From IMG/VR virus record IMGVR_UViG_2778261277_000016, positions 1 to 25,499 of that record: 25,499 bases of DNA; one strand, written 5' to 3'. Source of the stretch: a virus (lineage: Duplodnaviria; Heunggongvirae; Uroviricota; Caudoviricetes). The notes beneath the pieces are model-generated. The model saw only the letters and a program-made list of their open reading frames with translations. It was not told where the DNA came from and searched no databases. The position numbers and the translations under genes are program-made. Of the stretch, positions 332 through 19,023 are shown piece after piece; positions within the stretch are counted from its first letter, which is position 1, and every line of letters starts with the position of its first letter.

Positions 332-592
332 TTAATTCTGAGGTAAAGGCAAGCTCATCTGATTGTTTCCCCTGTGTGAAGCTGGCAGCTCATGCCACGG
401 GATACCTTCTGAAGAGTGGATGCCGGAGGCGTGTTTCGATGTGAATTTATGGAAAGCTTCCAGTGTTGAGAAGCATACGCCGCATTCCAGGTTGTTACAC
501 TGGTAATACTTTTGCCGCACGGTGTTTGAATCATTTTCCGGACGACTGGTGCGGATACGGGCAGATGCGCCACAAAGCGGACAACGGAACAT
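332..592 (-). CDS. ogr: Ogr/Delta-family zinc-finger late transcription activator
   Basis: N-terminus MFRCPLCGASARIRTSR...YYQCNNLECGVCF has the C-x2-C...C-x4-C pattern and matches P2 Ogr (MFHCPLC...RTSR...YHQCQNVNC) from memory. Position after gene D fits P2 synteny. Confidence 0.8.
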   Translation of the reverse strand: MFRCPLCGASARIRTSRPENDSNTVRQKYYQCNNLECGVCFSTLEAFHKFTSKHASGIHSSEGIPWHELPASHRGNNQMSLPLPQN

Positions 593-741: not shown

Positions 742-1407
742 TCAATTTTTAAGAGCACTGATACAGAAAAATTGCATGACATTTTTCTTTATTGATTTAA
801 ATAAGCTAAACATTGTGACAGGTTCAAAGCTAGTTAACTCGATGAATTCCTCTCTCATTTGAGAAAGTAACAGCTGACGTACTGATTCAATTTCTGCTGT
901 TTGTTTTCTCAAATATCTTGAGAAAACAAGTAGTTCATCAGCTGTTTTGTTTTGGCCATTTATAAACGTAACAGGTTGCCCTGGCTTAGATATGAGAAAA
1001 AATTGGTTAATTTTATCAAGTAATGGTGGAATTATTTTTTTCCATTCAGCCCATTCTTTTTCACGATGAAACTCCAGACTGTGCTGACATGTTCTTAGTT
1101 GCTGTCTATCAATCGCCCAGACCTCACTCTCATCGAGGCAATCTTTCCATTTGCTAATTACATTAATGTCAAATTTTTTGTTCGGTAGATAATTATCTTT
1201 GGCGTGCGCTTCCAGTATAGAGGCAAGAGTACCTGTATATTGCATCAAATTGGTAGATGCTCGGTTTACTAGCTCTGATATTCGATCTAGTTGAGTTGTT
1301 CTAATCTCAAGTGCTTTCTTTTTACGTTCATTTCGTAAAGCAAAATATGCAGCAAGGCAGACTGCAGCAACTGTGGCTGCTGGTGCGATAAAAATTTGCA
1401 TATTCAT
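742..1407 (-). CDS. Hypothetical membrane-anchored protein (AT-rich cargo gene between D and ogr), about 221 aa
   Basis: Long ORF in a visibly AT-rich stretch flanked by GC-rich phage genes. N-terminal hydrophobic helix IFIAPAATVAAVCLAAYFAL followed by a basic patch RNERKKK. AAGGA lies 8 nt before the ATG at 1405-1407; the ORF could extend to 1431. No homolog recognised. Confidence 0.6.
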   Translation of the reverse strand: MNMQIFIAPAATVAAVCLAAYFALRNERKKKALEIRTTQLDRISELVNRASTNLMQYTGTLASILEAHAKDNYLPNKKFDINVISKWKDCLDESEVWAIDRQQLRTCQHSLEFHREKEWAEWKKIIPPLLDKINQFFLISKPGQPVTFINGQNKTADELLVFSRYLRKQTAEIESVRQLLLSQMREEFIELTSFEPVTMFSLFKSIKKNVMQFFCISALKN

Positions 1408-1601
1408 AACATGGATCCTTTGACATGGCATTTATGGGGGCTATTTCAGCAGTAATCATTTGTGTGTAAATTTGTTTGCTACAAATTAACATATTCTAAT
1501 GTAAGGCTCTTCTGATTTTGACACCGGGTAGGCTGTCAGATTGGTTATGATTCTTGCTGTAAGCGCGTTAGCAAATGTCAGGGCTAATGCATCTAAGTTG
1601 T

Positions 1602-2711
1602 TTACTCTGTTTCTGCTATCCATTCCGGGATTTTGGCTTCAAGCTCAAGCTGCGTGGTAAAGCCACTGTTATCAATGGTGTGCTCGGCTTTTGCAATAAT
1701 CCAGTCCTGATTATCAATTTCGCTTTTAAATCCTGTTACCGTGCCATGCATTTCGGGGTAGAGTTCTGCGCGTCCACGTGCCAGTGTGATGGAGAACGCT
1801 GCGGCTCCGCGTTGTAGCTGCTGCCACTTTGCCGCCGCTGCGCGTCTTGCTGCCTGCTCGTTCTGATAAGTCTTGCGTAACACAAACACATTGCCTTCTG
1901 CGCCTTCCATATAATCACCTTCACGGCTGCTGCTTTTCTCCTTTTTGGGTTTTGGCGGTTTGCGGCGTTTCACGCTGACTTTTTTCTTTTTCCCGTAATT
2001 AAGATCAAGCCAGTAAGCGCGTACCCCCGTATACGCTTCGCGGTCAGCAATGCGGAACTGATGGCGATCGCCACTGCTGCGCGTGATGGCGAACGAGGGC
2101 AACGGCTGGCCCTGTGCGTTCACGCCACCGCCTGGCATGATGAATAACAGATTACCGCTTTTTACCGTGGTGATTGCGCCCAGCATTTCCGCCATGCGCG
2201 TAAGGAAGGACATGTCGCTTTCTTCGGTCTGGTCGGCGTGGTCGATTTCGATATCCATCAGCATTTCGCTGATTTGTGGTTTCAGACCATACCGATGAGC
2301 GATGGCGGATACCACACGCTCGAGGGTCACATCATGCCAGGACACCTCACGTTTAACGTTAAATTCATCCCGAAAATCTGCGCTTCTGGCTGAAACAGTC
2401 AGCCTGTCCGGCGGTCCTTCGTGAGCGATTTCATCAACAATGTAAGTGCCTTTTTCTGTCAGCGGTTCTCCTTTCCAGCCAATGAGAACCGTCAGGCGCG
2501 CGCCCCGTGGCGGTAGCTGCAACTGACCATCCGCATCATCCAGCGTGATGGTGAGCTGGTCCGCCTCAAATCCCCGGTTGTCGGTCAGTGACAGGCTCAT
2601 CAGGCGCTCTGCCACGCCTGACAGCGTTTTACCCTCCGCAAGAATATCAAAATCCGGCATTTTCACGGGGTCTGTGCCCTGACTGAGCAATTGCATGGTG
2701 GTATCGGTCAT
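1602..2711 (-). CDS. D: Phage tail protein D (P2 gpD family, late control gene D)
   Basis: 369-aa product; size, position before ogr and overall sequence fit P2 gpD. Start chosen at MTDTT because AGGGAGGG precedes it; the ORF track extends to 2732. Confidence 0.8.
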   Translation of the reverse strand: MTDTTMQLLSQGTDPVKMPDFDILAEGKTLSGVAERLMSLSLTDNRGFEADQLTITLDDADGQLQLPPRGARLTVLIGWKGEPLTEKGTYIVDEIAHEGPPDRLTVSARSADFRDEFNVKREVSWHDVTLERVVSAIAHRYGLKPQISEMLMDIEIDHADQTEESDMSFLTRMAEMLGAITTVKSGNLLFIMPGGGVNAQGQPLPSFAITRSSGDRHQFRIADREAYTGVRAYWLDLNYGKKKKVSVKRRKPPKPKKEKSSSREGDYMEGAEGNVFVLRKTYQNEQAARRAAAAKWQQLQRGAAAFSITLARGRAELYPEMHGTVTGFKSEIDNQDWIIAKAEHTIDNSGFTTQLELEAKIPEWIAETE

Positions 2712-2764
2712 CTTTCCCTCCCTGTGCGCCATGGTCGCATGTGCGTGCGGAGGGGGTTACTGCT

Positions 2765-2792
2765 TTTTGTTGTCGCCGTGGTGGGAGAACGG
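2765..2792 (+). promoter_or_regulatory. Candidate late-promoter activator box TTTTGTTGT-N12-AGAACGG upstream of FI
   Basis: TTTTGTTGT cgccgtggtggg AGAACGG, centred about 89 bp before the FI ATG. A near-identical box lies upstream of P (21938-21965). Resembles, but is not identical to, the P2 Ogr site TGT-N12-ACA. Confidence 0.3.
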
Positions 2793-2867
2793 CGCAGGGG
2801 TGAGATTACGCGCGTGGTGGGTGATGATTGTTGCCGAATCATTTAACGGATACAAGGGGCTGAAGCT

Positions 2868-4052
2868 ATGAGTGAAACTCGTTTTCATGGTGCCCGTGTC
2901 ACGGAAAGTACCGACCTGGTAACAGCGATTAATGATGTTGATTCCAGCGTTATCGGTATCGTGGCAACGGCGGATGATGCGGACGCGAAGCTGTTCCCGC
3001 TGAACAAGCCCACACTGCTGACCCGCGTCAATGACGTGCTGGGAAAATGCGGAACAACGGGGACGCTTTATCGTGCGCTTAAGGCCATCGCAGACCAGGT
3101 GAGCACAAAGGTGATCGTCGTTCGCGTGGCTGAACACAAAGAAGAAGACGGAAAGACGCAGGATCAACTGGTTATCGGTGGTTCTGAGGATGACGGCAGC
3201 TATACGGGGATGTATGCGCTGCTTGTTGCAGAGCAGGATGAAAGCATCGGATACCGTCCGCGTATTCTGGCCGCGCCGGAGCTGGACACGGAGGCGGTAA
3301 CAAAATCCCTGTGCGTGATTGCGGGTAAACTGCGCGCGTTTGTGTATGCCACATGTCATGGTTGTAACACGATGGCTGAGGCGATTGCCTACCGCCAGAA
3401 ATTCAACGAACGTGAGGTGATGCTCTTATGGCCTGACTTCATCGCCTACAACCCGAAAAGTGGCAAAAACGAAACGTTCCCCGCGCCTGCCTATGCGTGC
3501 GGCCTTCGTGCGTACATTGACCATGAGCAGGGCTGGCACAAATCATTGTCCAACGTTCCGGTTAAAAATGTGCTGGGGATGTCGAGGCATGTGTTCTGGT
3601 CGTTGCAGGCCGAAGACAGCGATGCCAACAGCCTCAACAACAAAGAAATCACGACCATTATTCGTCGCAACGGGTTCCGCTTCTGGGGCAACCGCACACC
3701 GGAAACGAACGCCTACATCTTTGAGGTGTATACCCGAACCGCACAGGTGCTGGCTGATTCAATTGCGGAAGCGCAGTTTGAAACCATCGACAGTCCACTG
3801 ACGCCTGCGAACGTGAAGGATGTTATCAGTGCCATCAGGGCAAAACTGGATTCACTGGTTACTGCCGGGAAACTGATTGGCGCGGAGTGCTGGTATGACG
3901 TGGTGGATAACAGCACCACGGATTTACGTCAGGGGCGTGTGCGTATTCGCTACAAATATACGCCCGTTCCGCCACTGGAAGACATGGAGCTTTACCAGAC
4001 GTTTACTGATGAATTCTTTGGTCCCGCATTTGCGGTGCTGGGAGGTGCCTGA
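2868..4052 (+). CDS. FI: Tail sheath protein (P2 gpFI family)
   Basis: 394 aa, close to P2 FI size as I recall it; AAGGGG RBS; followed by the tube gene with a TGATG overlap. Confidence 0.9.
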   Translation: MSETRFHGARVTESTDLVTAINDVDSSVIGIVATADDADAKLFPLNKPTLLTRVNDVLGKCGTTGTLYRALKAIADQVSTKVIVVRVAEHKEEDGKTQDQLVIGGSEDDGSYTGMYALLVAEQDESIGYRPRILAAPELDTEAVTKSLCVIAGKLRAFVYATCHGCNTMAEAIAYRQKFNEREVMLLWPDFIAYNPKSGKNETFPAPAYACGLRAYIDHEQGWHKSLSNVPVKNVLGMSRHVFWSLQAEDSDANSLNNKEITTIIRRNGFRFWGNRTPETNAYIFEVYTRTAQVLADSIAEAQFETIDSPLTPANVKDVISAIRAKLDSLVTAGKLIGAECWYDVVDNSTTDLRQGRVRIRYKYTPVPPLEDMELYQTFTDEFFGPAFAVLGGA

Positions 4053-4564
4053 TGGCTGTACCAAAACATCTTCGCTTTTTTACGCTGTTTGTGGATGGTG
4101 AAAACGAAGTGGGTAAGGTGACGTCCGTCACTCTGCCTAAGCTGACGCGCAAAACCGACAGCTACCGGGGTGGTGGCATGATGGGTGCGGTAAGTATTGA
4201 TCTCGGTCTGGACGACTCCGCGCTTGATGCGAGCTTTGTCATGGGGGGCGCAGTTCGTGAGCTGTTCCTTAAGTATGGCGGCACGATTGACGGCACGCTG
4301 CTGCGTTTTGCGGGTGAATACTACACCGATGCAGAAAGCGACCTGTATGAAGTCGAAATGCGCGGACGTGTGACGGAAATTGATATGGGGGAAGCCAAAC
4401 AGGGCGAAGCCACATCACACACTTACGCCATTAAAAACACCTACTACAAGCTGAGTGTTAACGATCGCCCGTTGTGGGAGATTGACCTGCTGAACTTCAT
4501 CTACCGGAAGGACGGCAAGGACATTGTGCCTGACCGTATCCGTTCCGCGCTTGGGCTTGGCTGA
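4052..4564 (+). CDS. FII: Tail tube protein (P2 gpFII family)
   Basis: 170 aa; GGAGGTG RBS; canonical position between sheath and the E/E' chaperone. Confidence 0.9.
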   Translation: MAVPKHLRFFTLFVDGENEVGKVTSVTLPKLTRKTDSYRGGGMMGAVSIDLGLDDSALDASFVMGGAVRELFLKYGGTIDGTLLRFAGEYYTDAESDLYEVEMRGRVTEIDMGEAKQGEATSHTYAIKNTYYKLSVNDRPLWEIDLLNFIYRKDGKDIVPDRIRSALGLG

Positions 4565-4618
4565 TAAGTAATATGCAGGCGGCGCAGTGCGTCGCCTCTG
4601 ACTGAAAGGAGTTTCCTG

Positions 4619-4984
4619 ATGAAAGAGACGAAAAACATCGATACCGAAAACACGGTAGTTACTGACACTGTGAAAGAAACCAGTGAGCGTGGCGTAAAAC
4701 TTACCCAACCAATTGAGCGAGGTGGCGAAAAAATCACGTATGTGGAGATCACCGGGGCTATTGAGCAGGCTGGATCTCTGCGAGATTTGTCGCTGTCTGA
4801 TGTGCTGAATCTGAAAGCGGAATCCATGTTTACGCTGCTGTCACGCGTGACATCACCGCGACTGGATGAAGTGACGATCAAAAAAATGGCATCCCGTGAC
4901 TTTATTCAGTTATGTGTGGTTGCCGTAAATTTTTTGAGCGGTGCGGACTCTGGCGGGAAGAACGAACAGGCGACGGAAGCCTGA
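4619..4984 (+). CDS. E: Tail assembly chaperone E (frame-0 product)
   Basis: 121-aa ORF with AAGGAG RBS directly upstream of the tape-measure gene; contains the slippery heptamer near its 3' end. Confidence 0.8.
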   Translation: MKETKNIDTENTVVTDTVKETSERGVKLTQPIERGGEKITYVEITGAIEQAGSLRDLSLSDVLNLKAESMFTLLSRVTSPRLDEVTIKKMASRDFIQLCVVAVNFLSGADSGGKNEQATEA

Positions 4985-5148
4985 TCACGGTTGTGTGCTT
5001 TGAGCACATAGAAGACTTTGTGGCGGATATTGCCGCCATTTTTAACTGGTCGCCCGCCGAAATCTTCATGATGACGCCCGGCGAAGTGGTTAGCTGGCGT
5101 GAGCGGGCGGCACTTCGCAGCGGGAATGCAGACAATGAAGACTCTTGA
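4619..5148 (+). CDS. E+E' fusion chaperone made by programmed -1 frameshift
   Basis: The -1 frame ORF (4912-5148) continues from the slippery T-TTT-TTG at 4930-4936. Frame arithmetic checked: E codons start at 4931 and 4934, the E' frame reads from 4930. This is the conserved P2 E/E' (lambda G/GT-like) arrangement. Confidence 0.6.
4930..4936 (+). other. Slippery heptamer TTTTTTG for the -1 ribosomal frameshift
   Basis: AAATTTTTTGAG at the point where the E frame and the -1 E' frame overlap. Confidence 0.6.
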
Positions 5149-7942
5149 TATCCGGGTCGCTTTCAGCGCCGTTGACAGGCTGACCCGGCCTGCCGAAAAC
5201 GCCCGCCGCCTGATGGGGCAGTTTGGTGACTCCATCCAGCGAACGCAGGGGGCGATCAAAAATCTCGAGCGTCAGGCGCGATCATTTGAGCGCGCCCGTG
5301 ACGCTGTCAGTAAAGCGGATGCGGGCATCGTGAAAGCACGACGCCAGCTTAACGCCCTTAATCAGTTACAACGCACGGGTACAGTGCTCAGCGAAAAACA
5401 ACAAAAGCTGATGCAGCAGTTAAGCACCCGGCTTGAACGCCTGAATGAATCGCGCACACGGGAAATTCAGAAAATGCGGGAGCTTGGCGGAGAGCTGAAA
5501 CGCCACGGCATTTCCCTGACAGGCAGCGATAACACCATCCAGCAGGCCATCAGACGCACCGAACAGTACAACAACCAGCTTGAACGCGAACGGCAGGCGC
5601 TTGCGCGTGTAACACGGGCGCGTGAGCGGTATTCGCGCGCGCAGGAAACAGCGGGAAAACTGAAAACAGGTGGTGCGCTGGCAATTGGTGCGGCAGCGGC
5701 GGGCGGCTATGCTGCCGGGCGTTTTTTGCAGCCTGCGATCGGGTTCGGCAAAGAGATGTCCCGCGTTCAGGCACTGACGCGAATCGACCAGAACAGCCCG
5801 CAGTTTAAGGCGCTGCGTGAGCAGGCGTTAAAACTTGGCTCTGAAACGCAGTTCACCGCAGGCGATGCCGCCAGTGGACAGGCATTTCTTGCAATGGCTG
5901 GCTTTACACCACAGGCCATTCAGGCTGCGCTCCCTGGCGTACTGAGCATGGCAACGGCTGGCGGTATGGACCTCGGTGAGACGGCGGATATTGGCTCAAA
6001 TATTCTGACGCAGTTCGGTCTTTCTGCTGACCAGATGGACCGGGTCGGCGACACACTCACCGCAGCGTTTACCCGTACCAACACTGACCTTCGCGCACTG
6101 GGTGAAACCATGAAATATGCAGGTCCGGTGGCGGGTAAGCTGGGAATATCGCTGGAGCAGGCCGCAGCGATGGCGGGCGTGCTGGCGAATATGGGTATCA
6201 GGGGGAGTGATGCTGGTACGGCAATGCGTGCCAGCCTGGCTCGTCTGGCATCACCGCCAAAGGCGGCAGCAGAGGCGCTGAAAGAGCTTGGCGTGTCTGT
6301 CTCGGATGCCGGGGGCAAAATGCGCCCGATGGAGGATGTGCTGGCTGACCTTTATAAAGCTACCCGCAAATACGGGGAAGTTGACCGGGTATCGTTCTTT
6401 AAGGACATTGCCGGAGAAGAGGCTTTCACATCATTTATGGCCCTCGTTGATGCGGCAGGTGACGGCTCCTTACCCAAACTGAGAAAAGAACTTGAAGGCG
6501 CGCGCGGTGAGGCTGAACGCACGGCAAAGGTTATGGCCAACAACCTTGACGGCGATCTGAAATCACTCAGCAGTGCATGGGAAGGGTTGCGCATCCGCAT
6601 TGCAGATCTGATTGACGGTCCGCTGCGTTCTGTCACGCAGTGGCTCACGCGTGTGGTATCAAAGGTGACGGCGCTGGCGCAGGCCCATCCCGCACTGACG
6701 CGCCAGCTACTGATTGCAGGCGGTGCACTGCTGGCAATGACTGCAACGGTTGGCTCGTTGTCGCTGGCTATTGGTGTGCTTGCTGGCCCGCTGGCAAAAC
6801 TGCGTCTTGGTTTTTCCCTCCTGACCGGATCAATGAATGCTGTCAGGGTTCTGCCAGCACTATGGGGAATGGTGACGGGTTCCGTTTCTTTACTGGGAGG
6901 CGCTATCGGGGCGTTGTTCAGTCCGGTTGGTCTTATCGTGGCTGCGCTTGCCGGAGCTGCCGTTCTTATCTGGAAATACTGGGATCCCATCAGGGCATTT
7001 TTTGCCTGGGTGTTCAGCGGGATTATGGAAAGGCTGACCCCGTTGCGCGAAACCTTTGAACGGTTTGGTCCTGTTTTTGACGCAATCGGGAGTGGGATCA
7101 GCCAGGTGTTTAACTGGTTTAAATCGCTGCTGTCACCGATGGAGTCCAGCAAGGAAACTCTGGATAAATGTACCAGTGCTGGCGAGATATTCGGTAACGT
7201 TCTTGGCGGTGCGTTACAACTTGTTCTGACACCTGCAAAAATGTTGCTGGATACGCTGGCGTGGATACTTGAAAAGCTTGGTGTGCTTCCGGATGAAGCG
7301 GAAAGGGCGCGCAAGAAAATCGAAGACGCACAGCGTGCGGCCATTCTTCAGGACAAGGTTGCCTTGCTTCAGGGGGACCTGGCGAAAATCAATCCGCCGA
7401 AGCCTGTGGAAAATGGCAATGGCACCGGAGGTGATAACCCCAAAGACAATAAACCGCTCACAGACAGCAATACCGGTACGCTGCGCAGACTCAGCAAAAT
7501 TGCTGATAACACAGGTAAGCTGGTTGAGGAGACGAAAAAACGCATTGGCCCCGGCGATATTGTCTTTAAAAACCTGCCCCGAGCACTTGCTGTTCGTGGG
7601 GAGTGGCAGGAGCGGAAGATTGCGCAGGTCAGTAAGCCTGCCCCCGCAATTAATATCACACCCGTGGTCCCGGCTCCGCTGCCTCCGGCGCTGGTCCCTG
7701 TTGTTGCGGCCAGCTCCCGCCCGGTGGCGGAGGCTATACGATCTCCAGTGGCATCAGTTCCTGTAACTTCCCGTAACCGGGAGCCTGTTGCCTCCGGATT
7801 TGGTGGTGAAATTCATGTTCATCTGCATAACGTTGTTACGCAGAATCCCCGCGAACTGGCGAAACTGGTCGGTGAAATGGTCAGGGCAGAAATGGAACGG
7901 CGCGCCCGTGCCGGGCGTGGCAGTTTTTACGATAAAGATTGA
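5126..7942 (+). CDS. T: Tail tape measure protein (P2 gpT family)
   Basis: Very long ORF (about 940 aa) with an N-terminal coiled-coil-like region, central Gly/Ala-rich hydrophobic segments and a Pro/Val-rich C-terminus, directly after E/E'. Start is uncertain: GTG 5099, ATG 5126 or ATG 5135. Confidence 0.85.
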   Translation: MQTMKTLDIRVAFSAVDRLTRPAENARRLMGQFGDSIQRTQGAIKNLERQARSFERARDAVSKADAGIVKARRQLNALNQLQRTGTVLSEKQQKLMQQLSTRLERLNESRTREIQKMRELGGELKRHGISLTGSDNTIQQAIRRTEQYNNQLERERQALARVTRARERYSRAQETAGKLKTGGALAIGAAAAGGYAAGRFLQPAIGFGKEMSRVQALTRIDQNSPQFKALREQALKLGSETQFTAGDAASGQAFLAMAGFTPQAIQAALPGVLSMATAGGMDLGETADIGSNILTQFGLSADQMDRVGDTLTAAFTRTNTDLRALGETMKYAGPVAGKLGISLEQAAAMAGVLANMGIRGSDAGTAMRASLARLASPPKAAAEALKELGVSVSDAGGKMRPMEDVLADLYKATRKYGEVDRVSFFKDIAGEEAFTSFMALVDAAGDGSLPKLRKELEGARGEAERTAKVMANNLDGDLKSLSSAWEGLRIRIADLIDGPLRSVTQWLTRVVSKVTALAQAHPALTRQLLIAGGALLAMTATVGSLSLAIGVLAGPLAKLRLGFSLLTGSMNAVRVLPALWGMVTGSVSLLGGAIGALFSPVGLIVAALAGAAVLIWKYWDPIRAFFAWVFSGIMERLTPLRETFERFGPVFDAIGSGISQVFNWFKSLLSPMESSKETLDKCTSAGEIFGNVLGGALQLVLTPAKMLLDTLAWILEKLGVLPDEAERARKKIEDAQRAAILQDKVALLQGDLAKINPPKPVENGNGTGGDNPKDNKPLTDSNTGTLRRLSKIADNTGKLVEETKKRIGPGDIVFKNLPRALAVRGEWQERKIAQVSKPAPAINITPVVPAPLPPALVPVVAASSRPVAEAIRSPVASVPVTSRNREPVASGFGGEIHVHLHNVVTQNPRELAKLVGEMVRAEMERRARAGRGSFYDKD

Positions 7943-7948
7943 GGAGTC

Positions 7949-8443
7949 ATGGCCATGATGATGATCTACGGCATGTTTGTTTTTGAGCTGCGCACGCTGC
8001 CGCATCAGCAGTTACAGCAAAACAAAAGCTGGCGGCATGTGAAAAATGAACGCGTTAACCGTTCAGCAAGCTGGCAGTATATCGGTGCAGGTGATGATCG
8101 CATCGTTCTTTCTGGTGTGCTTTATCCTGAAATTACAGGTGGCGAAGTGTCGCTGTCGCTGCTGACCACGCAGGCGTATACAGGACGACCCTGGCCTTTG
8201 ATTGATGGTGTCGGGCAGATTTACGGCATGTATGTCCTGACCGGAACGAATACGACCCGCTCCGAGTTTGATCGCTACGGTAAGGCGAAAAAGATAGAAT
8301 TTTCACTGACTCTTGAACGCTGTGATGAGGATTTGCGGGAGCGCCTGCAATCCTCATCGTTCAGTGATATGCTGTCCGGCTTCAAAGATAAGGTCACATC
8401 ATCCCTTAACAGCGCGGCCAGCTCCGTTAACGGGCTGTTTTGA
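7949..8443 (+). CDS. U: Tail protein U (P2 gpU family)
   Basis: 164 aa; motifs such as MYVLTGTN...KIEFSLTLERCDE resemble P2 gpU from memory. True start may be the ATG at 7955, which has better spacing from the GAGGAG RBS. Confidence 0.85.
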   Translation: MAMMMIYGMFVFELRTLPHQQLQQNKSWRHVKNERVNRSASWQYIGAGDDRIVLSGVLYPEITGGEVSLSLLTTQAYTGRPWPLIDGVGQIYGMYVLTGTNTTRSEFDRYGKAKKIEFSLTLERCDEDLRERLQSSSFSDMLSGFKDKVTSSLNSAASSVNGLF

Positions 8444-8450
8444 TTAACGC

Positions 8451-8488
8451 AAAACCGCTAATGGTCAGATTAGCGGTTTTCATTTTCC
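8451..8488. terminator. Bidirectional hairpin terminator between U and the invertase fragment
   Basis: Perfect 12-bp inverted repeat AAAACCGCTAAT(8451-8462)/ATTAGCGGTTTT(8469-8480) with a 6-nt loop, followed by CATTTTCC on +. Sits between convergent genes. Confidence 0.5.
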
Positions 8489-8775
8489 TGAGTCTGCCTG
8501 GTTGTTTCTTCAGCCTGTATATCGCCTACAGGGTGATAACGATAAATCGTCGATATGCCGATGTCGTAAATGATCGCCAGTTGTTTCCTGTCATGACCGT
8601 TTTTAATCAGCCTCGCTATTTGTTCGTGTTGTTCTTTTGTCAACTTCGGGCGACGTCCGCCAATGCGTCCTTGTGCGCGTGCTGCTGCCAGCCCGGCCAG
8701 TGTACGCTCTACAATTAATTCATGTTCCATTTCGGCTAAAGCTCCCATGACGTGAAAAAAGAAACGCCCCATGGG
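8470..8775 (-). pseudogene. Truncated serine-invertase paralog (C-terminal half only)
   Basis: Translation PMGRFFFHVMGALAEMEHELIVERTLAGLAAARAQGRIGGRRPKLTKEQHEQIARLIKNGHDRKQLAIIYDIGISTIYRYHP matches the C-terminal half of the adjacent invertase with a handful of substitutions. DNA similarity stops near 8775; the catalytic N-terminus is absent and there is no convincing RBS. Confidence 0.6.
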
Positions 8776-8860
8776 TGTTGATTGATGCGCCGCGCGATAA
8801 ACGTACCTATTTCCGTGAGATAAATTACATCGCCGCGGCATTTCAATATCAGAAAAAGAA

Positions 8861-9433
8861 TTACAAATCAGCTTGAGTTTGAAGTTCCTCTACAGGGTGA
8901 TAACGATAAATCGTCGATATACCGATATCGTAAATAATTGCCAACTGTTTCCTGCTATAGCCATTTTTGATCAGCCTTGCTATTTGTTCATGTTGCTCTT
9001 TTGTCAGTTTCGGACGACGTCCACCAATACGCCCCTGTGCACGTGCTGCTTCAAGTCCGGCCAGTGTTCGTTCAACTATTAATTCACGCTCCATTTCCGC
9101 TAAAGCCCCCATGACGTGAAAAAAGAAACGTCCCATGGGTGTTGACGTATCAATGCTGTCTGTAAGACTACGGAAGTTAACCCCTTTTTCCCGCAGTTCC
9201 TCAATAAGAGTGATGAGGTGTTTCATGCTTCTGCCCAGCCTGTCCAGCTTCCAGACAACGAGCGTATCTCCTTCTGATAACGTTCTGAGCAGCTTTTTCA
9301 ATCCCGGTCGGGCTGACTTTGTTCCGCTGATTTTATCCTCAAAAATCAGTTCACATCCTGCGCAGTTCAGTGCGTTTCGTTGTAAATCTGTATTCTGGTC
9401 ATTTGTTGACACACGAATGTAGCCAATTTGCAT
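8861..9433 (-). CDS. Serine DNA invertase, Gin/Hin/Pin/Cin/Min family
   Basis: Starts MQIGYIRVSTNDQNTDLQRNAL, the canonical N-terminus of this family with the catalytic Ser in RVST. Also has TLVVWKLDRLGRS, SLTDSIDTS and a C-terminal HTH (GISTIYRYHP). AAAGAGGA RBS 8 nt before the ATG. The ORF track's upstream extension to 9628 is rejected. Confidence 0.9.
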   Translation of the reverse strand: MQIGYIRVSTNDQNTDLQRNALNCAGCELIFEDKISGTKSARPGLKKLLRTLSEGDTLVVWKLDRLGRSMKHLITLIEELREKGVNFRSLTDSIDTSTPMGRFFFHVMGALAEMERELIVERTLAGLEAARAQGRIGGRRPKLTKEQHEQIARLIKNGYSRKQLAIIYDIGISTIYRYHPVEELQTQADL

Positions 9434-9487
9434 GAAAAATATCCTCTTTGTTTTGTTAAAAATACATAGCTGGTATAGGTGGGAGTT

Positions 9488-9513
9488 AAGACGAAAACGT
9501 TGGTTTGGGGGAA
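9488..9513. repeat. Candidate 26-bp invertase crossover site (cassette 1)
   Basis: AAGACGAAAACG-TT-GGTTTGGGGGAA. Right half-site is identical in all five sites; overall shape resembles hixL TTCTTGAAAACC-AA-GGTTTTTGATAA from memory. Confidence 0.5.
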
Positions 9514-9936
9514 GGCTCAGCGCTGCCCGTTGGTGTGCCCGTTCCGTGGCCCTCAGCCACACCGCCAGCAGGGTGGCTGAAATGTAACGGCGCAGCATTT
9601 TCTTCTGAAATGTACCCCAATCTGGCAAAGGCTTATCCTACAAATAAATTACCGGATTTACGGGGTGAGTTTATTCGCGGCTGGGATGACGGGCGGGGAA
9701 TTGATTCAGGACGCACTCTACTTTCGTTACAGGGCGATATGTTTAAATCGCACAGTCATTACTTCCGTGAAATATGGGGTGCAAATGGACCAGATGGAAC
9801 TGGTGGACCGTACATTGTCGGGGCGGATACAAACGGTTCGAGAATAAATTTAGGCACTATAGAAACCAGTGCACCTGGTGGTTCAGAAACCCGTCCCCGT
9901 AACATTGCATTTAATTACATCGTAAGAGCGGCATAG
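9505..9936 (+). CDS. Silent tail-fibre C-terminal cassette 1 (tail-collar-like domain, HxH-containing); promoterless gene segment
   Basis: No ATG or RBS (the ORF track begins at TTG inside the crossover site). Conserved N-part GEGSALPVGVPVPWPSATPP.GWLKCNGAAFSSEMYP.LAKAYPTNKLPDLRGEFIRGWDDGRGID, variable middle, conserved end RPRNIAFNYIVRAA; the same ends occur in the expressed H gene. Confidence 0.75.
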   Translation: MGEGSALPVGVPVPWPSATPPAGWLKCNGAAFSSEMYPNLAKAYPTNKLPDLRGEFIRGWDDGRGIDSGRTLLSLQGDMFKSHSHYFREIWGANGPDGTGGPYIVGADTNGSRINLGTIETSAPGGSETRPRNIAFNYIVRAA

Positions 9937-9955
9937 AAACGTTGGTTTGGGGGAA
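9930..9955. repeat. Candidate crossover site (cassette 2)
   Basis: GGCATAGAAACG-TT-GGTTTGGGGGAA; the left half-site contains the stop codon of cassette 1. Confidence 0.5.
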
Positions 9956-10414
9956 GGCTCGGCGCTGCCCGTTGGTGTGCCTGTTCCGTGGCCCTCAGCC
10001 ACACCACCAACGGGCTGGCTGAAATGTAACGGTGCAGCATTTTCTTCTGAAATGTATCCCAAACTGGCAAAAGCTTACCCCACCAATAAATTACCGGATT
10101 TACGGGGTGAATTTATTCGTGGCTGGGATGATGGGCGGGGAATTGATAATAGACGCAACCTACTGTCTGCACAGTCTGACACTATTCAGAATATAGTTGG
10201 CACTTTTGGACGAACTCAGCTTTTTAAAGATGCTTTAAATTCAGGGCCATTTAGTCAAACTGACTCTATATTATCAGTAGGCTTGCAACCAACTGAGAAT
10301 ATTGAAGGATATGGCGCCTCTGTATGGACATTCGACGCCTCTCGCTCAGTTCGCACAGCATCTGAAACACGTCCTCGTAACATTGCGTTTAATTACATCG
10401 TAAGGGCGGCATAG
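9947..10414 (+). CDS. Silent tail-fibre C-terminal cassette 2 (no HxH, AT-rich variable core)
   Basis: Same conserved ends as cassette 1; variable core NRRNLLSAQSDTIQNIVGTF... is unrelated to cassettes 1 and 4; in a different reading frame from cassette 1. Confidence 0.75.
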   Translation: MGEGSALPVGVPVPWPSATPPTGWLKCNGAAFSSEMYPKLAKAYPTNKLPDLRGEFIRGWDDGRGIDNRRNLLSAQSDTIQNIVGTFGRTQLFKDALNSGPFSQTDSILSVGLQPTENIEGYGASVWTFDASRSVRTASETRPRNIAFNYIVRAA

Positions 10415-10433
10415 AAACGTTGGTTTGGGGGAA
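10408..10433. repeat. Candidate crossover site (cassette 3)
   Basis: GGCATAGAAACG-TT-GGTTTGGGGGAA, identical to the cassette 2 and 4 sites. Confidence 0.5.
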
Positions 10434-10886
10434 GGCTCTGCACTACCTGTTGGTGTGCCTGTTCCATGGCCGTCAGCCACACCGCCAACAGGGTGGCTGA
10501 AATGTAACGGTGCAGCATTTTCTTCTGAAATGTACCCCAATCTGGCAAAGGCTTACCCCACGAATAAATTACCGGATTTACGGGGCGAATTTATCCGTGG
10601 CTGGGATGACGGACGAGGTATTGATGCAGGACGAGAGATACTTTCATTTCAGGAAGGCACTATCGTCTCCGGTTTTGATGATAATGATACTGGGGATATC
10701 AGTTCACTTAGCTCAACACAATACGGATTTGGTGACACTCTAACCTCTAATCAATGGGGGGCCATAAATGGCAAAAAGTGGATATTTGATGCATCCAGTA
10801 AAGGTGCACAAAAATATGACTGGCGGGCTTATGTATCAGCTCGTCCGCGTAATATTGCATTTAATTACATCGTAAGAGCGGCATAG
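10425..10886 (+). CDS. Silent tail-fibre C-terminal cassette 3 (no HxH)
   Basis: Same conserved ends; unique variable core AGREILSFQEGTIVSGFDDNDTGD... Confidence 0.75.
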   Translation: MGEGSALPVGVPVPWPSATPPTGWLKCNGAAFSSEMYPNLAKAYPTNKLPDLRGEFIRGWDDGRGIDAGREILSFQEGTIVSGFDDNDTGDISSLSSTQYGFGDTLTSNQWGAINGKKWIFDASSKGAQKYDWRAYVSARPRNIAFNYIVRAA

Positions 10887-10905
10887 AAACGTTGGTTTGG
10901 GGGAA
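10880..10905. repeat. Candidate crossover site (cassette 4)
   Basis: GGCATAGAAACG-TT-GGTTTGGGGGAA. Confidence 0.5.
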
Positions 10906-11400
10906 GGCTCTGCACTACCCGTTGGTGTGCCTGTTCCGTGGCCCTCAGCCACACCGCCAACAGGGTGGCTGAAATGTAACGGCGCAGCATTTTCTTCTGA
11001 AATGTACCCCAAACTGGCAAAGGCTTACCCCACCAATAAATTACCGGATTTACGGGGTGAGTTTATTCGTGGCTGGGATGATGGGCGGGGAATTGATTCA
11101 GGGCGTTCCTTGCTTAATGCACAATCACATTCGGTTATAGATCATATTCATTATATGGAGTTATGGACTGGTGAAGGGCTTGCCGCAAACAACACCCGTG
11201 CAGGAACAAACCCTGGTATACTGGCTACATACGGTGATGGCGGGATTGTTAAAACAGATGAGTCAGGTGTAAAAGTTCCATCTTCACTACGTGCTATTGG
11301 CACTCGTGGTGTTTATAGATTAGGTGCCAACGGAGGGAATACAGGAACGGAAAACCGCCCCCGTAATATTGCGTTTAACTATATTGTAAGGGCTACTTAA
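10897..11400 (+). CDS. Silent tail-fibre C-terminal cassette 4 (HxH-containing), coupled to the downstream tail-fibre assembly gene
   Basis: Same conserved ends; variable core contains HIHYMELW; its stop overlaps the next gene's start as TAATG (11398-11402). Confidence 0.75.
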   Translation: MGEGSALPVGVPVPWPSATPPTGWLKCNGAAFSSEMYPKLAKAYPTNKLPDLRGEFIRGWDDGRGIDSGRSLLNAQSHSVIDHIHYMELWTGEGLAANNTRAGTNPGILATYGDGGIVKTDESGVKVPSSLRAIGTRGVYRLGANGGNTGTENRPRNIAFNYIVRAT

Positions 11401-12017
11401 TGAATAATGCTGCTGCAGTACTTGATCAGAATGGTATCGCTATAACTGCAGGCGATATTACCGTTTATAACTACGATGCTGAAAACCGTGAATATCTCTC
11501 TGCCACTGTTGAGTATCTCGCTTATGGTGTTGGAATTCCGGCTCACTCATGCATTGACGCGCCACCAGAAAAACGCCCCGGCTTCGCTGTCTGTCGTGAT
11601 ACCGACCAGAACATCTGGAAATATGTTCCAGACCACAGAGGCGAAACGGTTTACAGCACAGAGAATGGTAACGCTGTGCAAATCACACAACCGGGAGATT
11701 ACCCTCCTGATACGACGGTGAAACAGCCAGCTACTATCTATGATGTCTGGGATGGTGAGATTTGGGTGACAGATACGAGACGACAGCACGCAGCAGAACT
11801 GGAAGCTGCCGGAGCGCATCGTCAGCAACTTGAGGAACAGGCAATGGCATCTGTTGAGCTTATTAATCTCAAACTACGAGCCGGACGCCGATTGACGCCC
11901 CAGGAGACGGAAAAACTAAACGCCGTGCTTGATTTCATAGATACGCTTAATGCGACTGACATCAGCACTGCACCGGATATCAACTGGCCGGAAATGCCTC
12001 TGGCAGCAGCCAGTTGA
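11400..12017 (+). CDS. Tail fibre assembly protein (Tfa family; P2 gpG / Mu U analogue)
   Basis: 205 aa; translationally coupled to cassette 4 with an AAGGG RBS; family assignment is from memory of Tfa-like proteins (short conserved N-terminus, Asp/Pro-rich regions, coiled-coil segment) and from its position beside the fibre cassettes. Confidence 0.75.
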   Translation: MNNAAAVLDQNGIAITAGDITVYNYDAENREYLSATVEYLAYGVGIPAHSCIDAPPEKRPGFAVCRDTDQNIWKYVPDHRGETVYSTENGNAVQITQPGDYPPDTTVKQPATIYDVWDGEIWVTDTRRQHAAELEAAGAHRQQLEEQAMASVELINLKLRAGRRLTPQETEKLNAVLDFIDTLNATDISTAPDINWPEMPLAAAS

Positions 12018-12023
12018 GTATAA

Positions 12024-13541
12024 TTAAGCCGCCCTCACGATATAGTTAAATGCGATATTGCGGGGGCGAGTTTCACTACCACCAGTGTTACCAATACTCC
12101 CTCGTGAATGAAGTGTCGGTGATGGGATCAGACTCCCGCCTGTACTTGTGGCATCAAGTCCCCGTCCTTGTGTATATGTTTTTTTGAAAATTGTGGCCAA
12201 CTCCCATTCATCCTTTGTGTCATACCCATCGTTAGCTACAACAATATGGCGGTGTTTTTCCAGCATCCCAGTTTGAAAGCTTAATAAAGCACGTCCTGCA
12301 TCAATCCCTCGCCCGTCATCCCAGCCACGAATAAACTCGCCCCGTAAATCCGGTAATTTATTGGTGGGGTAAGCCTTTGCCAGTTTGGGGTACATTTCAG
12401 AAGAAAATGCTGCACCGTTACATTTCAGCCACCCTGTTGGCGGTGTGGCTGAGGGCCACGGAACAGGCACACCAACGGGTAGTGCAGAGCCTTCCCCCAA
12501 ACCAAGGTATGCGAGAAGACCAGCTACATCCTTTCCACTCAAATTGGTAAGCGTATTGTCCAGCGGTTGTTTACCTGCCAGCGCACTAAGCATTGTCGTG
12601 GCAAAGTTCGGATCATTCCCCAGTGCCGCAGCCAGTTCGTTCAGCGTGTTCAGTGCATCAGGTGACGAATCTACAAGTGCGGCAATCGCGGCCATAACGA
12701 AAGCCGTGCTTGCGATCTGGGTACTATTAGTCCCCTGTGGCGCTGTTGGTGTTGTTGGCATTCCGGTCAGTGCCGGGCTGTTTAATGGTGCTTTCTTGCT
12801 CGTTTCATCCATTACCGCCTTAACAGCTTTTGGTGTCGCTGCCAGCGTTTCAGACGTGCTGTTCGTGGCGCTACTGAGCTGAACAATCCCTTTTTGTGTT
12901 GTGGTGGCGTTCTGGGCGGTATATTTCCCGTCAGCCAGGTCATATGCAGCCTTAACTGCTTTCGGTGTTGCGGCCAGTGTTTCTGATTCACTGTTAATTG
13001 CACTGCTTAACTGAGTAAAACCTTTTGCGGTCAGCGAGGCGTCCGGGTGACGTCGTGACTGTTCGTGCTCTGAGATTTTATCATCCACATATTTGCGGGT
13101 TGCCAGAACCACCGACGGGTCGATTTTCAGCGTGATGGCTTCGGTATTCGTGACAACCAGAATCATGCGGATAGTCTGGGTGCGTCCACTGCCTTCCTGC
13201 AACTGCGGTTTGTACGTTTCCGGGCAGTTTGCCACCGCAATGAGTACACCTTCATCATCATAAAGACCAATCTCACGGATCCAGAATCCTCCCTCGTTTT
13301 CAGGGATGATTTGCTCCGCAATAATCTGGCTCTGATTGTTAGGGTCAACACTCAGAAGATTCAGCGGTGCAATGCGTTTCTGGTTAATCAGTTTTGTTTG
13401 TGCAGGGTCTGGTGTTGGTAACACACCATTTGCATCACCAACGGCCATTTGCGTCAGATTCAGCTTACTGCCGAGCATCGTCGCGTTAGCCAGTCGTGCT
13501 GCGCCCTGATTAGTCAGAATGGCGTAGTATTTCACTGTCAT
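12024..13541 (-). CDS. H: Tail fibre protein H, currently expressed variant (P2 gpH-like N-terminus fused to a tail-collar-type C-terminal cassette)
   Basis: N-terminal portion through EHEQSRRHPDASLTAKGFTQLSSA...ETLAATPKAVKA matches P2 gpH from memory. The C-terminal 155 aa begin ...LGLGEGSALPVGVPVPWPSATPPTGWLKCNG and end RPRNIAFNYIVRAA, the same frame as the silent cassettes on the opposite strand. Confidence 0.9.
   Translation of the reverse strand: MTVKYYAILTNQGAARLANATMLGSKLNLTQMAVGDANGVLPTPDPAQTKLINQKRIAPLNLLSVDPNNQSQIIAEQIIPENEGGFWIREIGLYDDEGVLIAVANCPETYKPQLQEGSGRTQTIRMILVVTNTEAITLKIDPSVVLATRKYVDDKISEHEQSRRHPDASLTAKGFTQLSSAINSESETLAATPKAVKAAYDLADGKYTAQNATTTQKGIVQLSSATNSTSETLAATPKAVKAVMDETSKKAPLNSPALTGMPTTPTAPQGTNSTQIASTAFVMAAIAALVDSSPDALNTLNELAAALGNDPNFATTMLSALAGKQPLDNTLTNLSGKDVAGLLAYLGLGEGSALPVGVPVPWPSATPPTGWLKCNGAAFSSEMYPKLAKAYPTNKLPDLRGEFIRGWDDGRGIDAGRALLSFQTGMLEKHRHIVVANDGYDTKDEWELATIFKKTYTQGRGLDATSTGGSLIPSPTLHSRGSIGNTGGSETRPRNIAFNYIVRAA
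12492..12517. repeat. Candidate crossover site inside H (constant/variable junction), inverted relative to the cassette sites
   Basis: + strand reads TTCCCCCAAACC-AA-GGTATGCGAGAA, i.e. on the - strand TTCTCGCATACC-TT-GGTTTGGGGGAA. Homology with the cassettes begins exactly at the TT core, inside the CTT codon of ...AYLGLGEGS. Confidence 0.55.
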
Positions 13542-14146
13542 GCGTTTACTCTCAGATTATCAATTAAATGAATGGCCGGGGCAGGGAAATAATCCCCTTC
13601 GACAATAATGGACTCCGGGGTGTAGGGATAAACCGTCAGGGCATCGCCGTGATAGCATCCCGTACCAACGAAAATCTTTCCGTTCACACTCAGGCTGATC
13701 GCCAGCCCCGTCAGATGGCGACTTACTGGTTTTGCATCCGCAATAAGGCGCTCAAGTTCCTGATACATTTCATCGGTGATGCCCTGATCAAGTACTCCGA
13801 CAACAATGCGAAATGTTCCTGGCTCCTCGTTGAGTTGCCACCACTCCTTTACTTCAATCAGGTAGCCGAGAGGCTCCACGGCTCTTCGCAGTGCGCTGAT
13901 GGTCCCTTTGTGTCGGTGTATCAGCCATGCATCACGAATTACCTGTCGCTTTGTCTCTTCCGGCCAGTTGCGATCCCAGCGGTCAACGGAAAACGCCCAG
14001 GCGAAATAAGGCAGCAGATGCACCGGGCAGGTGTCCGGCGACCACAGCGTGTTGAGGTCTACCGGGATGTCTGTAATGCGCGTTCCGACAGCTTCGGCAT
14101 AACGCATGAAATTGCTGGCTGATGGCGGTAACAGTGAATTACTCAT
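13538..14146 (-). CDS. I: Baseplate/tail protein I (P2 gpI family)
   Basis: Position between J and H; start set at MSNSLLPP (ATG 14144-14146), which overlaps the J stop; the ORF track extends to 14200. Confidence 0.8.
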   Translation of the reverse strand: MSNSLLPPSASNFMRYAEAVGTRITDIPVDLNTLWSPDTCPVHLLPYFAWAFSVDRWDRNWPEETKRQVIRDAWLIHRHKGTISALRRAVEPLGYLIEVKEWWQLNEEPGTFRIVVGVLDQGITDEMYQELERLIADAKPVSRHLTGLAISLSVNGKIFVGTGCYHGDALTVYPYTPESIIVEGDYFPAPAIHLIDNLRVNA

Positions 14147-15035
14147 TACGCCCACCTTCGCTGATGGTGAATGACTCACAGCGCGCCGCCTGTATGTCAC
14201 TGATGGCCATATTCTGTGTGGGTTCGATTATCTCCACGCGTTGCACGCCGTGTACATGAAGTGCGGCAGCAATGGCGGACAACGCCACGTCCTGACCGAT
14301 AAGCCCCTGTTCAGCCAGCCACTTCCTGAATGACGATTCCGCCGCGGCCAGAATAGGTTCGGATTCCGGACCGGGGTAAAAGTACAGTTTTGCATTCAGC
14401 CGCCATGTCACGATGCTGGCGCTCTGTACGGTCAGGCGGTCGGCCACCGGGCGGGTATCCTCTGCATTCAGAACGGCGCGAACGGTATTAAGCAACGCCT
14501 CCGTTGCTGTGCCGTCGCCCTCAGTGGACAGTATGGAAACCGTCACGTTGGCCGGAGACGGGCTGATGGCTCGCGCGTCGCGTACCAGACCGCTGGCGCT
14601 GCGTGCAAAATACTCGTATGCGCCTGACGGGCCAGCAACACTCAGACCGTCATACGCCCGTTGCGCCCGCAGTCTCAGCGAGGTGTCGCTTTCCATCACC
14701 GCGTCGGTGGTATCCGTTGCCGGAGTGATAACCAGGCGCTTTGTGTTCATATTACCCGCGAGGTTGTCCAGGTCTGTCCCGGCGCTGTGGCTTAACATGC
14801 AGGCGCGTGCACCCTCATTGACCCGCTGGCGTAACAGCATTTCACGAAACGCTGTTGTCTGGGCGATAACGTTCAGAGGTTCCGATTCCAGCTCCAGCGC
14901 AGCGGAGACGGCTTCACGCTGTTCGGCGGGATAAGCCGCAATCATCATGGCCTTTGTGTCAGCCAGAATTGCCTCAAAGTCAGGCTCCGCGATGATGGCG
15001 GGTTCCGGTAACTGGGAAAGGTCAACGGCGGGCAT
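14139..15035 (-). CDS. J: Baseplate assembly protein J (P2 gpJ family)
   Basis: 298 aa; canonical W-J-I-H order. Confidence 0.85.
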   Translation of the reverse strand: MPAVDLSQLPEPAIIAEPDFEAILADTKAMMIAAYPAEQREAVSAALELESEPLNVIAQTTAFREMLLRQRVNEGARACMLSHSAGTDLDNLAGNMNTKRLVITPATDTTDAVMESDTSLRLRAQRAYDGLSVAGPSGAYEYFARSASGLVRDARAISPSPANVTVSILSTEGDGTATEALLNTVRAVLNAEDTRPVADRLTVQSASIVTWRLNAKLYFYPGPESEPILAAAESSFRKWLAEQGLIGQDVALSAIAAALHVHGVQRVEIIEPTQNMAISDIQAARCESFTISEGGRNE

Positions 15036-15038
15036 GAT

Positions 15039-18313: not shown

Positions 18314-18315
18314 TG

Positions 18316-18516
18316 CTACTCCCCCCACAACTGAATCATTTCTCGTTTCTTCTTCTCCGGCTCCGGCATCTCCACGTCCTGCCCGGCGTCCAGAAATACC
18401 TGCTGACAGAGTCCGGGGTTGGCATCCAGCACCTTTTCGGTGACGCCCTGCGTCGTGCCGTAGTACCGGAAACAGAGCGAATCCACGGTGTCGCCTTCCA
18501 GTGCCTTCACTTTCAT
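18316..18516 (-). CDS. X: Tail protein X (P2 gpX family)
   Basis: 66 aa starting MKVKALEGDTVDSLCFRYYG; start overlaps the L stop as TGATG. Confidence 0.75.
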   Translation of the reverse strand: MKVKALEGDTVDSLCFRYYGTTQGVTEKVLDANPGLCQQVFLDAGQDVEMPEPEKKKREMIQLWGE

Positions 18517-19010: not shown

Positions 19011-19023
19011 GGGGTTCACTCCT

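Follow-up and report, generated by a model that had tools for sequence, protein, structure and literature searches.

The flipped FI–U tail block of a P88-like prophage is shared across a Peduoviridae clade and adjoins a predicted bidirectional late promoter

Introduction

The F operon of phage P2 (FI FII E E′ T U D) is transcribed from the promoter PF, with D as its last gene, overlapping U. In the P2 record, FI-FII-E-T-U-D-ogr all run in the same direction as H and G. This canonical order, with D directly 3′ of U and FI-U-D oriented with H and G, is that of Peduovirus, Felsduovirus, and Citexvirus and is found in P2, Fels-2, and phiCTX. The divergent P and O operons of P2 follow a different design, in which two late units share one dyad-symmetric activator site, placed centrally between them at about 55 nt from each start. 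The PP/PO pair has been mapped experimentally; in the P2 record, pP and pO have one annotated activator site, halfway between their start sites. The TGT-N12-ACA consensus has been described, as has a shared PP′/PO′ site in phage Smp131 (PMC3931495).

Reorientable segments such as Mu G, P1 C, and p15B Min, served by invertases of the Gin/Cin/Hin/Pin type, are defined by inverted recombination sites at both ends and by the occurrence of both orientations among isolates. Two phages of established function, both of the genus Xuanwuvirus (Peduoviridae), also bear on the present locus. Escherichia phage P88 can be induced with mitomycin, forms plaques, and is known from electron micrographs (PMC5285337), while Citrobacter phage PhiSM (Shae_phiSM) is released spontaneously, forms plaques, and lysogenises K-12 (PMC6456863).

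We analyzed a 25,499-nt stretch of a Caudoviricetes record (IMG/VR IMGVR_UViG_2778261277_000016, positions 1 to 25,499), hereafter the window, in which the FI–U block departs from the P2 order. The original prediction offered three explanations: an invertase-mediated or illegitimate inversion that may have left the prophage defective, a lineage-specific arrangement, or a mis-assembly. Only the lineage-specific arrangement survived comparison. We consider it very probable that the block is a fixed, inherited flip of a large Peduoviridae clade, with a single old origin and a dyad shared by D and FI. In the literature on P88, Xuanwuvirus, and Peduoviridae, we found no explicit account of the inversion or of a D promoter.

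Gene order of the window

P2 proteins searched by tblastn matched the window for Q, P, O, N, M, L, X, R, S, V, W, J, I, H, FI, FII, E, T, U, D, and ogr at 26–72% identity; G and the lysis genes Y, K, lysA, and lysB drew no reported match. PHROGs and Pfam assignments agreed with these identities. The genes from ogr to U are as follows.

332–592, minus strand: ogr homologue (late-gene activator); Pfam Ogr_Delta, E = 5e-14; tblastn match with P2 Ogr at 592–434 (minus), 42% identity
1602–2711, minus strand: D, tail/baseplate hub; PHROG 52, Pfam Phage_GPD, 49% identity to P2 D; tblastn match 2657–1605 (minus)
2868–4052, plus strand: FI, tail sheath; PHROG 23, Pfam sheath domains, 45% identity to P2 FI; tblastn match 2886–4019 (plus)
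4052–4564, plus strand: FII, tail tube; PHROG 55, 42% identity to P2 FII; tblastn match 4052–4558 (plus)
4619–5148, plus strand: E (4619–4984) with the E′ −1 frameshift extension to 5148; PHROG 103; tblastn match to P2 E at 4685–4939 (plus)
5099–7942, plus strand: T, tape measure protein; PHROG 28, P88 annotation; tblastn match to P2 T at 5144–7303 (plus)
7949–8443, plus strand: U, tail protein and last gene of the flipped block; Pfam Phage_P2_GpU, E = 1.5e-38, 46% identity to P2 U; tblastn match 7955–8335 (plus)

Thus FI-FII-E/E′-T-U (2868–8443) occupies the plus strand, as do P and Q, while D, ogr, and H through O lie on the minus strand, confirming by tblastn, PHROGs, Pfam, and the P2 record the strand opposition that had been read from the DNA alone. 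The same seven genes, the E −1 frameshift site, and an Ogr homologue are present as in P2, whereas D is detached from U, diverges from FI, and is preceded by a ribosome-binding site and a −10-like hexamer of its own.

The most likely start of D, judged from the upstream Shine-Dalgarno sequence AGGGAGGG and in agreement with the P88 annotation, is ATG 2711, although a longer open reading frame would begin at 2732. With the start at 2711, the divergent D–FI spacer spans 2712–2867 and has the predicted length of 156 bp. T probably starts at ATG 5135, by homology to P88. None of the genes in the block is truncated; all are full length, the slippery site TTTTTTG (4932–4938) is intact, and P88 is annotated with the same two E/E′ frames. 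In the ogr product, four cysteines make up a zinc finger (C4-X2-C7 ... C32-X4-C37). Homologues of the P2 head, tail, and baseplate genes, with no reported match for the lysis genes or G, together with an Ogr/Delta zinc-finger activator and TGT-N12-ACA-type boxes (5/6 core positions), place the window in Peduoviridae.

Functional relatives and distribution

P88 and PhiSM match the window at 96–97% nucleotide identity over 75–83% of its length. They have the same gene order and strands as the window across D, FI–U, the invertase, and H–O, and both junctions are identical. Functional phages in exactly this orientation were what the original prediction had named as evidence against a defect or an artefact. 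The window differs from P88 and PhiSM in an extra C-terminal invertase fragment, a four-cassette invertible fibre region, and different cargo between D and ogr (742–1431); the cargo frame had no match in Pfam, PHROGs, PADLOC, or NCBIfam. Against at least seven Xuanwuvirus genomes, 75–83% of the 25-kb window is collinear at 96–97% identity, and in comparisons with over 10 phage genomes, each sequenced independently, both junctions fall inside single collinear alignments (94–97% identity). The ICTV genus criterion is about 70% across the genome. Judged by this high identity, measured over a window that covers the late region only, the DNA is a Xuanwuvirus (P88-like) P2-family prophage.

The same order recurs in Novemvirus, Reginaelenavirus, and Reipivirus, also of Peduoviridae. 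A genome scan covering many Enterobacterales found it at 59 of 80 prophage loci with a D homologue, where D is 61–98% identical to that of the window; the other 21 loci, with D at 47–53% identity, are canonical. The flipped order therefore extends to relatives whose D is only 61% identical, most of which lack a nearby invertase. Of 5426 complete E. coli genomes, 1109 carry the D–FI junction, while the hypothetical flipped-back junction occurs in 0 of 1416.

The D–FI spacer

The original prediction held that the late promoter box had travelled with FI and left D without an obvious late promoter. Alignment of diverged D–FI spacers instead yielded a dyad motif whose position lies between the two genes, in the window with AGA in the right half.

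2767–2790, no strand: Ogr-type activator dyad TTGTTGT-N12-AGAAC (core TGT-N12-AGA); motif search and spacer alignment
2731–2736, minus strand: predicted −10 hexamer of the D late promoter, GACCAT on the D strand, 44–49 nt from the dyad centre
2823–2828, plus strand: predicted −10 hexamer of the FI late promoter, GATGAT, 44–49 nt from the dyad centre
21940–21963, no strand: comparator dyad, the second exact TTGTTGT-N12-AGAAC, in the divergent O–P spacer; motif search

The dyad is centred at 2779.5; the ATG of D lies 68.5 nt away and that of FI 88.5 nt. The exact motif, with 12 specified bases, occurs twice in the window, in the D–FI and O–P spacers only, against none expected by chance. A strict TGT-N12-ACA search of the window returned no site in any late spacer, D–FI included, the window dyad agreeing with that core at 5/6 positions (AGA rather than ACA). 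Among 56 distinct related spacers, a perfect TGT-N12-ACA is present in 30, compared with 3% of shuffles, and the position is conserved (median 82.5 nt to the FI ATG and 70.5 nt to the D ATG). On the FI side the geometry is the same as in P2, with the dyad about 82–88 nt from the FI ATG and the −10 element about 44–50 nt from the dyad centre.

The comparison of −10 elements separates the two clades. A NANNNT hexamer 44–49 nt from the centre on the FI side is found in 33/35 representative spacers of the inverted clade and in 13/16 canonical relatives. On the D side, 30/35 inverted-clade representatives have one, versus 2 of the 16 canonical spacers on their non-FI side. The D–FI spacer thus has one mid-spacer dyad with equidistant −10-like elements on both strands, as at PP/PO, with about 55 nt to each predicted start; the PP/PO pair is mapped, whereas the D–FI promoters are predicted by comparing sequences. 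The window's own O–P spacer carries the same exact motif, with −10-like hexamers 44–50 nt from the centre (TAATCT towards P, CATCAT towards O).

Together, these features make a second bidirectional Ogr-dependent late promoter, like P2 PP/PO, the most likely function of the D–FI spacer. Ogr would bind the 2767–2790 dyad, and transcription would start near 2835 (plus) and 2724 (minus). The old F operon would then be split into two divergent late transcription units, one running from FI to U and ending at a hairpin (8451–8480), the other led by D, on whose strand ogr lies farther downstream. Both would be driven from the one dyad, about 55 nt upstream of each predicted start, and each would use its own −10 hexamer, a layout that would reproduce the P2 design for the divergent P and O operons. 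The concern over a missing D promoter is answered by this comparative evidence.

The arrangement could instead be typical of the lineage with D driven by some other promoter, constitutive or early, or by a mechanism unrelated to Ogr. Agreement with the −10 consensus is weak (GACCAT 3/6 positions, GATGAT 4/6), the predicted D leader is very short at about 13 nt, and a sigma-70 promoter scan of the spacer gave nothing convincing. We regard a separate D promoter as unlikely, as the D-side hexamer sits at the exact mirror offset of the FI hexamer in the diverged spacers and is rare in the canonical ones, the spacing between the dyad and the D ATG is tightly conserved, and D, a virion component, is needed late along with FI to U. 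A pV-like box was also sought in the gap upstream of R (17060–17196) and among the motif matches with up to two mismatches; none was convincing. With no such box upstream of the baseplate genes, the late-promoter map of the lineage is incomplete.

Origin of the flipped order

In neighbour-joining trees of D and of FI, rooted on phiCTX and built without bootstrap from loci chosen for similarity to the window D, the 64 inverted taxa are monophyletic in both. With polarity taken from one distant outgroup plus P2 and Fels-2, the canonical order appears ancestral, and the flipped order would have arisen from it once, long ago.

A route without any inversion in place would be module replacement, in which an FI–U cassette from another P2-like lineage recombined in the opposite orientation. 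Phage genomes are mosaic, and the neighbouring fibre/invertase region is clearly recombinant: a partial invertase gene stands beside a complete one, and H shares 72% identity with its P2 counterpart as against about 45% elsewhere. Yet the D and FI trees recover the same monophyletic group, and divergence from P2 by tblastn is alike inside the block (32–46% identity) and outside it (D, 49%), FI itself standing at 45%; both observations fit co-inheritance. The spacing from dyad to FI is, moreover, identical in the inverted and canonical clades. We regard replacement as quite improbable.

We lean towards a single ancient inversion that split the F operon and was tolerated, as we propose, because the Ogr-binding site is dyad-symmetric. 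After such a flip, the pF box would adjoin D, which would then need just a −10 hexamer at the mirror position. The result would be a second PP/PO-like promoter marking a large, as yet undescribed sub-lineage, comprising Xuanwuvirus, Novemvirus, Reginaelenavirus, Reipivirus, and many prophages.

The U junction and the invertase region

At its far end the block meets an invertase locus.

8451–8480, no strand: hairpin terminator between convergent U and the invertase fragment; terminator scan; RNA fold −15.7 kcal/mol, z = −3.2
8470–8841, minus strand: invertase C-terminal fragment; PHROG 125; 83% identical to residues 94–193 of the full copy
8861–9451, minus strand: full Hin/Gin/Cin-type invertase; PHROG 125

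The hairpin has a 12-bp stem and lies just past the end of U (8443), in line with the predicted convergence of U on a terminator beside the invertase fragment. With an A-run before it and a T-run after it, the hairpin could terminate transcription in both directions. Immediately beyond, 8861–12519 is a true invertible fibre system of the Mu G/P1 C/p15B Min kind, with one invertase, five crossover sites, and four alternative fibre tips; the crossover sites are confined to 9486–12519.

The closeness of the U junction to a Hin/Gin-type invertase and to part of another is what would favour a recent inversion, invertase-mediated or illegitimate, within this prophage, possibly making it defective. 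We searched for the crossover core, the 30-nt consensus, and inverted repeats at the junctions. The best consensus scores, 16/30 and 14/30, were at the level of the background, whose mean maximum was 15/30, so no invertase crossover site was detected at either junction, and no inverted repeat links the two, the longest exact match being 8 nt; the earlier failure to see crossover-like repeats there holds computationally. Unlike the Mu, P1, and p15B segments, the FI–U block lacks recombination sites at its ends, and its opposite orientation was never found (1109 E. coli genomes with the observed junction, none of 1416 with the flipped one). A recent or ongoing invertase-mediated flip is excluded because the junctions have no crossover sites, the opposite orientation is absent, and the order is kept in diverged relatives, including those with no invertase nearby. 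The identical order in the functional phages P88 and PhiSM and the undamaged block genes, with their E/E′ slippery site, likewise speak against it, leaving a recent inversion scarcely credible. The invertase genes (8470–9451) border the second junction and do not account for how the block is oriented.

Mis-assembly at either junction or at both, for which the departure from P2 order is the sole argument, has a negligible probability, since 1109 complete E. coli genomes have the same D–FI junction and collinear alignments to more than 10 phage genomes span the junctions.

Implications

The departure from the textbook order of P2 should not be taken for a defect, a mis-assembly, or an active inversion, and our result is mainly a correction: the arrangement is ordinary biology, already known from sequenced phages. 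The flipped layout is standard in several related genera and in an E. coli prophage type so common that about one-fifth of complete genomes contain it. A modest by-product is the testable prediction that D may be transcribed from a second bidirectional Ogr-dependent promoter. Block orientation, as a clean single-origin character, could aid Peduoviridae taxonomy and prophage annotation.

Two further candidates for carriers of the flip were set aside. Fels-2, suspected on the grounds that an invertase adjoins FI, has the canonical order. For the Xenorhabdus tailocin xnp1, the published account has a variable tail-fibre region flanked by the genes for the sheath and the main tail fibre, an arrangement that suggests the canonical order; the flipped Xenorhabdus loci therefore seem to be other prophages.

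Orientation of the tail genes

The gene layout was assembled from an ORF map of the window, scans with PHROGs and Pfam, and tblastn with every P2 late protein as query.

Features of the window
332-592, minus strand, ogr
742-1431, minus strand, low-GC ORF
1602-2711, minus strand, D
2731-2736, minus strand, D-side -10-like hexamer GACCAT
2823-2828, plus strand, FI-side -10-like hexamer GATGAT
2868-4052, plus strand, FI
4052-4564, plus strand, FII
4619-5148, plus strand, E and E'
ending at 7942, plus strand, T
7949-8443, plus strand, U
8451-8480, both strands, hairpin after U
8470-8841, minus strand, invertase fragment
8861-9451, minus strand, full invertase
9492-12017, plus strand, fibre-tip cassettes, four alternatives
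12024-21904, minus strand, H through O
22026-24823, plus strand, P and Q

In the P2 reference record, FI-FII-E-T-U-D-ogr lies on the same strand as V-W-J-I-H-G; the proposed flip of the FI-to-U block is therefore real, with only those five genes reversed. The original prediction also held for the 156-bp spacer between D and FI, for the hairpin 3' of U and for the absence of repeats at the junctions.

Using megablast against phage genomes, we recovered 13 records covering at least 80% of positions 1400-9000 at 94-97% identity, several with both junctions inside one aligned piece. The whole window was collinear with the same phages over 75-83% at 96-97% identity, and they belong to the ICTV genus Xuanwuvirus. 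As in the window, the annotated records of P88 and Shae_phiSM have U-T-E-FII-FI on the strand opposite to that of the fibre genes and D, with an invertase adjoining U. In the record of Citrobacter phage Shae_phiSM (OR565851.1, 2294-4745), GenBank product names are displaced by one gene, so that 'ogr' stands on the D homologue and 'late control gene D protein' on FI, the sheath gene.

Mis-assembly had been offered as one explanation, but the D|FI junction (2200-3400) occurs at a coverage of at least 80% in 1109 of 5426 complete E. coli genomes, which excludes an artefact. A defective prophage had also been suggested; however, this orientation is shared by functional phages, the very finding named beforehand as refuting that reading. 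P88 is mitomycin C-inducible, forms plaques and has been viewed in the electron microscope (PMC5285337), and PhiSM, which is released spontaneously, likewise forms plaques and lysogenizes E. coli K-12 (PMC6456863). The remaining suggestion, a lineage-specific arrangement, holds: the window belongs to a known genus and shows the gene order normal for it.

We also considered the block as a site-specific invertible segment. A synthetic flipped-back junction, with the D 5' end fused to the U 3' end, was found in none of the 1416 E. coli genomes bearing these genes, and the block is therefore not actively switching. The adjoining invertase has five clear crossover sites, all inside 9486-12519, and no similar sequence was present at the two block junctions. 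Lacking both junction crossover sites and a second orientation, this candidate was rejected.

A probable single ancestral inversion

With the junction as query, sensitive blastn found the D and FI 5' ends joined divergently in phages at just 66-72% identity, and the full inverted arrangement is present in the records of Novemvirus phiT5282H, Reginaelenavirus 3LV2017 and Reipivirus ST16-OXA48phi5.4. Scanning a D alignment against one genome per bacterial species yielded 80 loci, whose orientation was classified by tblastn. The 59 inverted loci encode D proteins 61-98% identical to window D and 44-52% to P2 D, while those of the 21 canonical loci are 47-53% identical to window D and up to 79% to P2 D. 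Hosts of inverted loci include Salmonella, Klebsiella, Enterobacter, Serratia, Pantoea, Erwinia, Pectobacterium, Yersinia, Xenorhabdus, Photorhabdus, Providencia and Morganella.

Neighbour-joining trees were built for D, which lies outside the block, and for FI, which lies within it. With Pseudomonas phage phiCTX as the root, the 64 inverted taxa were monophyletic both times. As P2, Fels-2 and phiCTX retain the canonical order, one inversion in the ancestor of the inverted clade is the simplest history. Less probably, an already reversed module was imported from elsewhere at the clade base. Identity to P2 by tblastn is alike inside and outside the block, which argues against a recent module swap.

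Nothing in the present sequence betrays the mechanism of the flip. An inversion could plausibly have been tolerated owing to the dyad symmetry of the activator site, which already serves both directions at PP/PO; breakpoints just past the pF box and at the U/D boundary would set a working activator site by D. This account is speculation.

A predicted bidirectional promoter between D and FI

The D|FI spacer carries TTTTTGTTGT at its centre, invariant in an alignment spanning four genera. The full motif, TTGTTGT-N12-AGAAC (2767-2790), has one other exact occurrence in the 25.5 kb, in the divergent O|P spacer (21940-21963), with 0 expected by chance. P2 has four known Ogr-dependent promoters, and the family consensus is TGT-N12-ACA (PMC3931495); judged by sequence, the window motif is a P2-family late-promoter element. 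Among 56 distinct inverted-clade spacers, 30 contain a perfect TGT-N12-ACA (versus 3% of shuffles) and 52 match at least 5 of 6 core positions. The dyad centre lies a median of 82.5 nt from the FI ATG, in agreement with the 80 to 86 nt of canonical relatives and P2, and 70.5 nt from the D ATG. The window's Ogr homologue is intact, with four cysteines.

We then anchored 35 inverted-clade representatives (<85% mutual identity) on the dyad centre and sought a -10-like hexamer, NANNNT, 44-49 nt away. It was present on the FI strand in 33/35 and on the D strand in 30/35, compared with 13/16 on the FI strand and 2/16 on the opposite strand in the canonical clade. In the window, GATGAT predicts a start site near 2835 and GACCAT one near 2724, both at ~55 nt from the centre of the dyad. 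In the P2 record, a single activator site (3057-3087) sits midway between start sites 3016 and 3127; the predicted D|FI geometry is that of P2 PP/PO, and the O|P spacer of the window is arranged likewise. This geometry of dyad and hexamers makes a second bidirectional Ogr-dependent late promoter the best-supported reading of D|FI. The concern that the promoter box had travelled with FI, leaving D without one, would be answered by the shared dyad and conserved D-strand hexamer. FI to U would then form one transcription unit terminating at the hairpin, and D would be the first gene of another unit on the other strand, with ogr farther downstream.

Elsewhere, R, S and V abut or overlap one another (15386-17196), and no Ogr-type box was found upstream of the baseplate genes in this interval. 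The P2 pV promoter may have no counterpart in the window, in which case the O operon may extend through to the fibre genes.

In the searchable literature we found neither the rearrangement nor a D promoter explicitly described; the inverted arrangement is plainly visible across many annotated reference genomes and is an already known, ordinary finding. The predicted bidirectional D|FI promoter is a modestly new, testable by-product.

Additional features

A multi-cassette fibre switch with four alternative tips occupies 9486-12519. CCTTCCCCCAAACCAACGTTT occurs four times on the minus strand (9486, 9928, 10406 and 10878), with a plus-strand partner within H at 12490, and each precedes an arm of ~210-230 bp (91-96% identical). 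In complexity the switch exceeds the two-state Mu G and P1 C segments; it is similar to p15B Min or a shufflon. Beside it, tandem invertase genes (8470-9451) comprise a C-terminal fragment and a complete Hin/Gin-type copy. The fragment is P88-like in DNA, and its protein is 83% identical to residues 94-193 of the full copy; the pair looks like a recombination scar from the swapping in of a different invertase and fibre-cassette module.

E contains a conserved slippery sequence, TTTTTTG (4932-4938), for a P2-type -1 frameshift, and the E' extension is open to 5148. The 229-aa ORF between D and ogr (~39% GC, ~55% around it) had no match in Pfam, PHROGs, PADLOC or NCBIfam and is probably an accessory gene; the stretch holding it varies among Xuanwuvirus genomes. 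Lastly, a 226-kb Firmicute-labelled contig ('Vagococcus sp. WN89Y', NZ_JBQPOM010000071.1) contains a prophage with D, FI and ogr at 97-99% identity to those of this E. coli-type prophage, most likely reflecting contamination or a mislabelled assembly.
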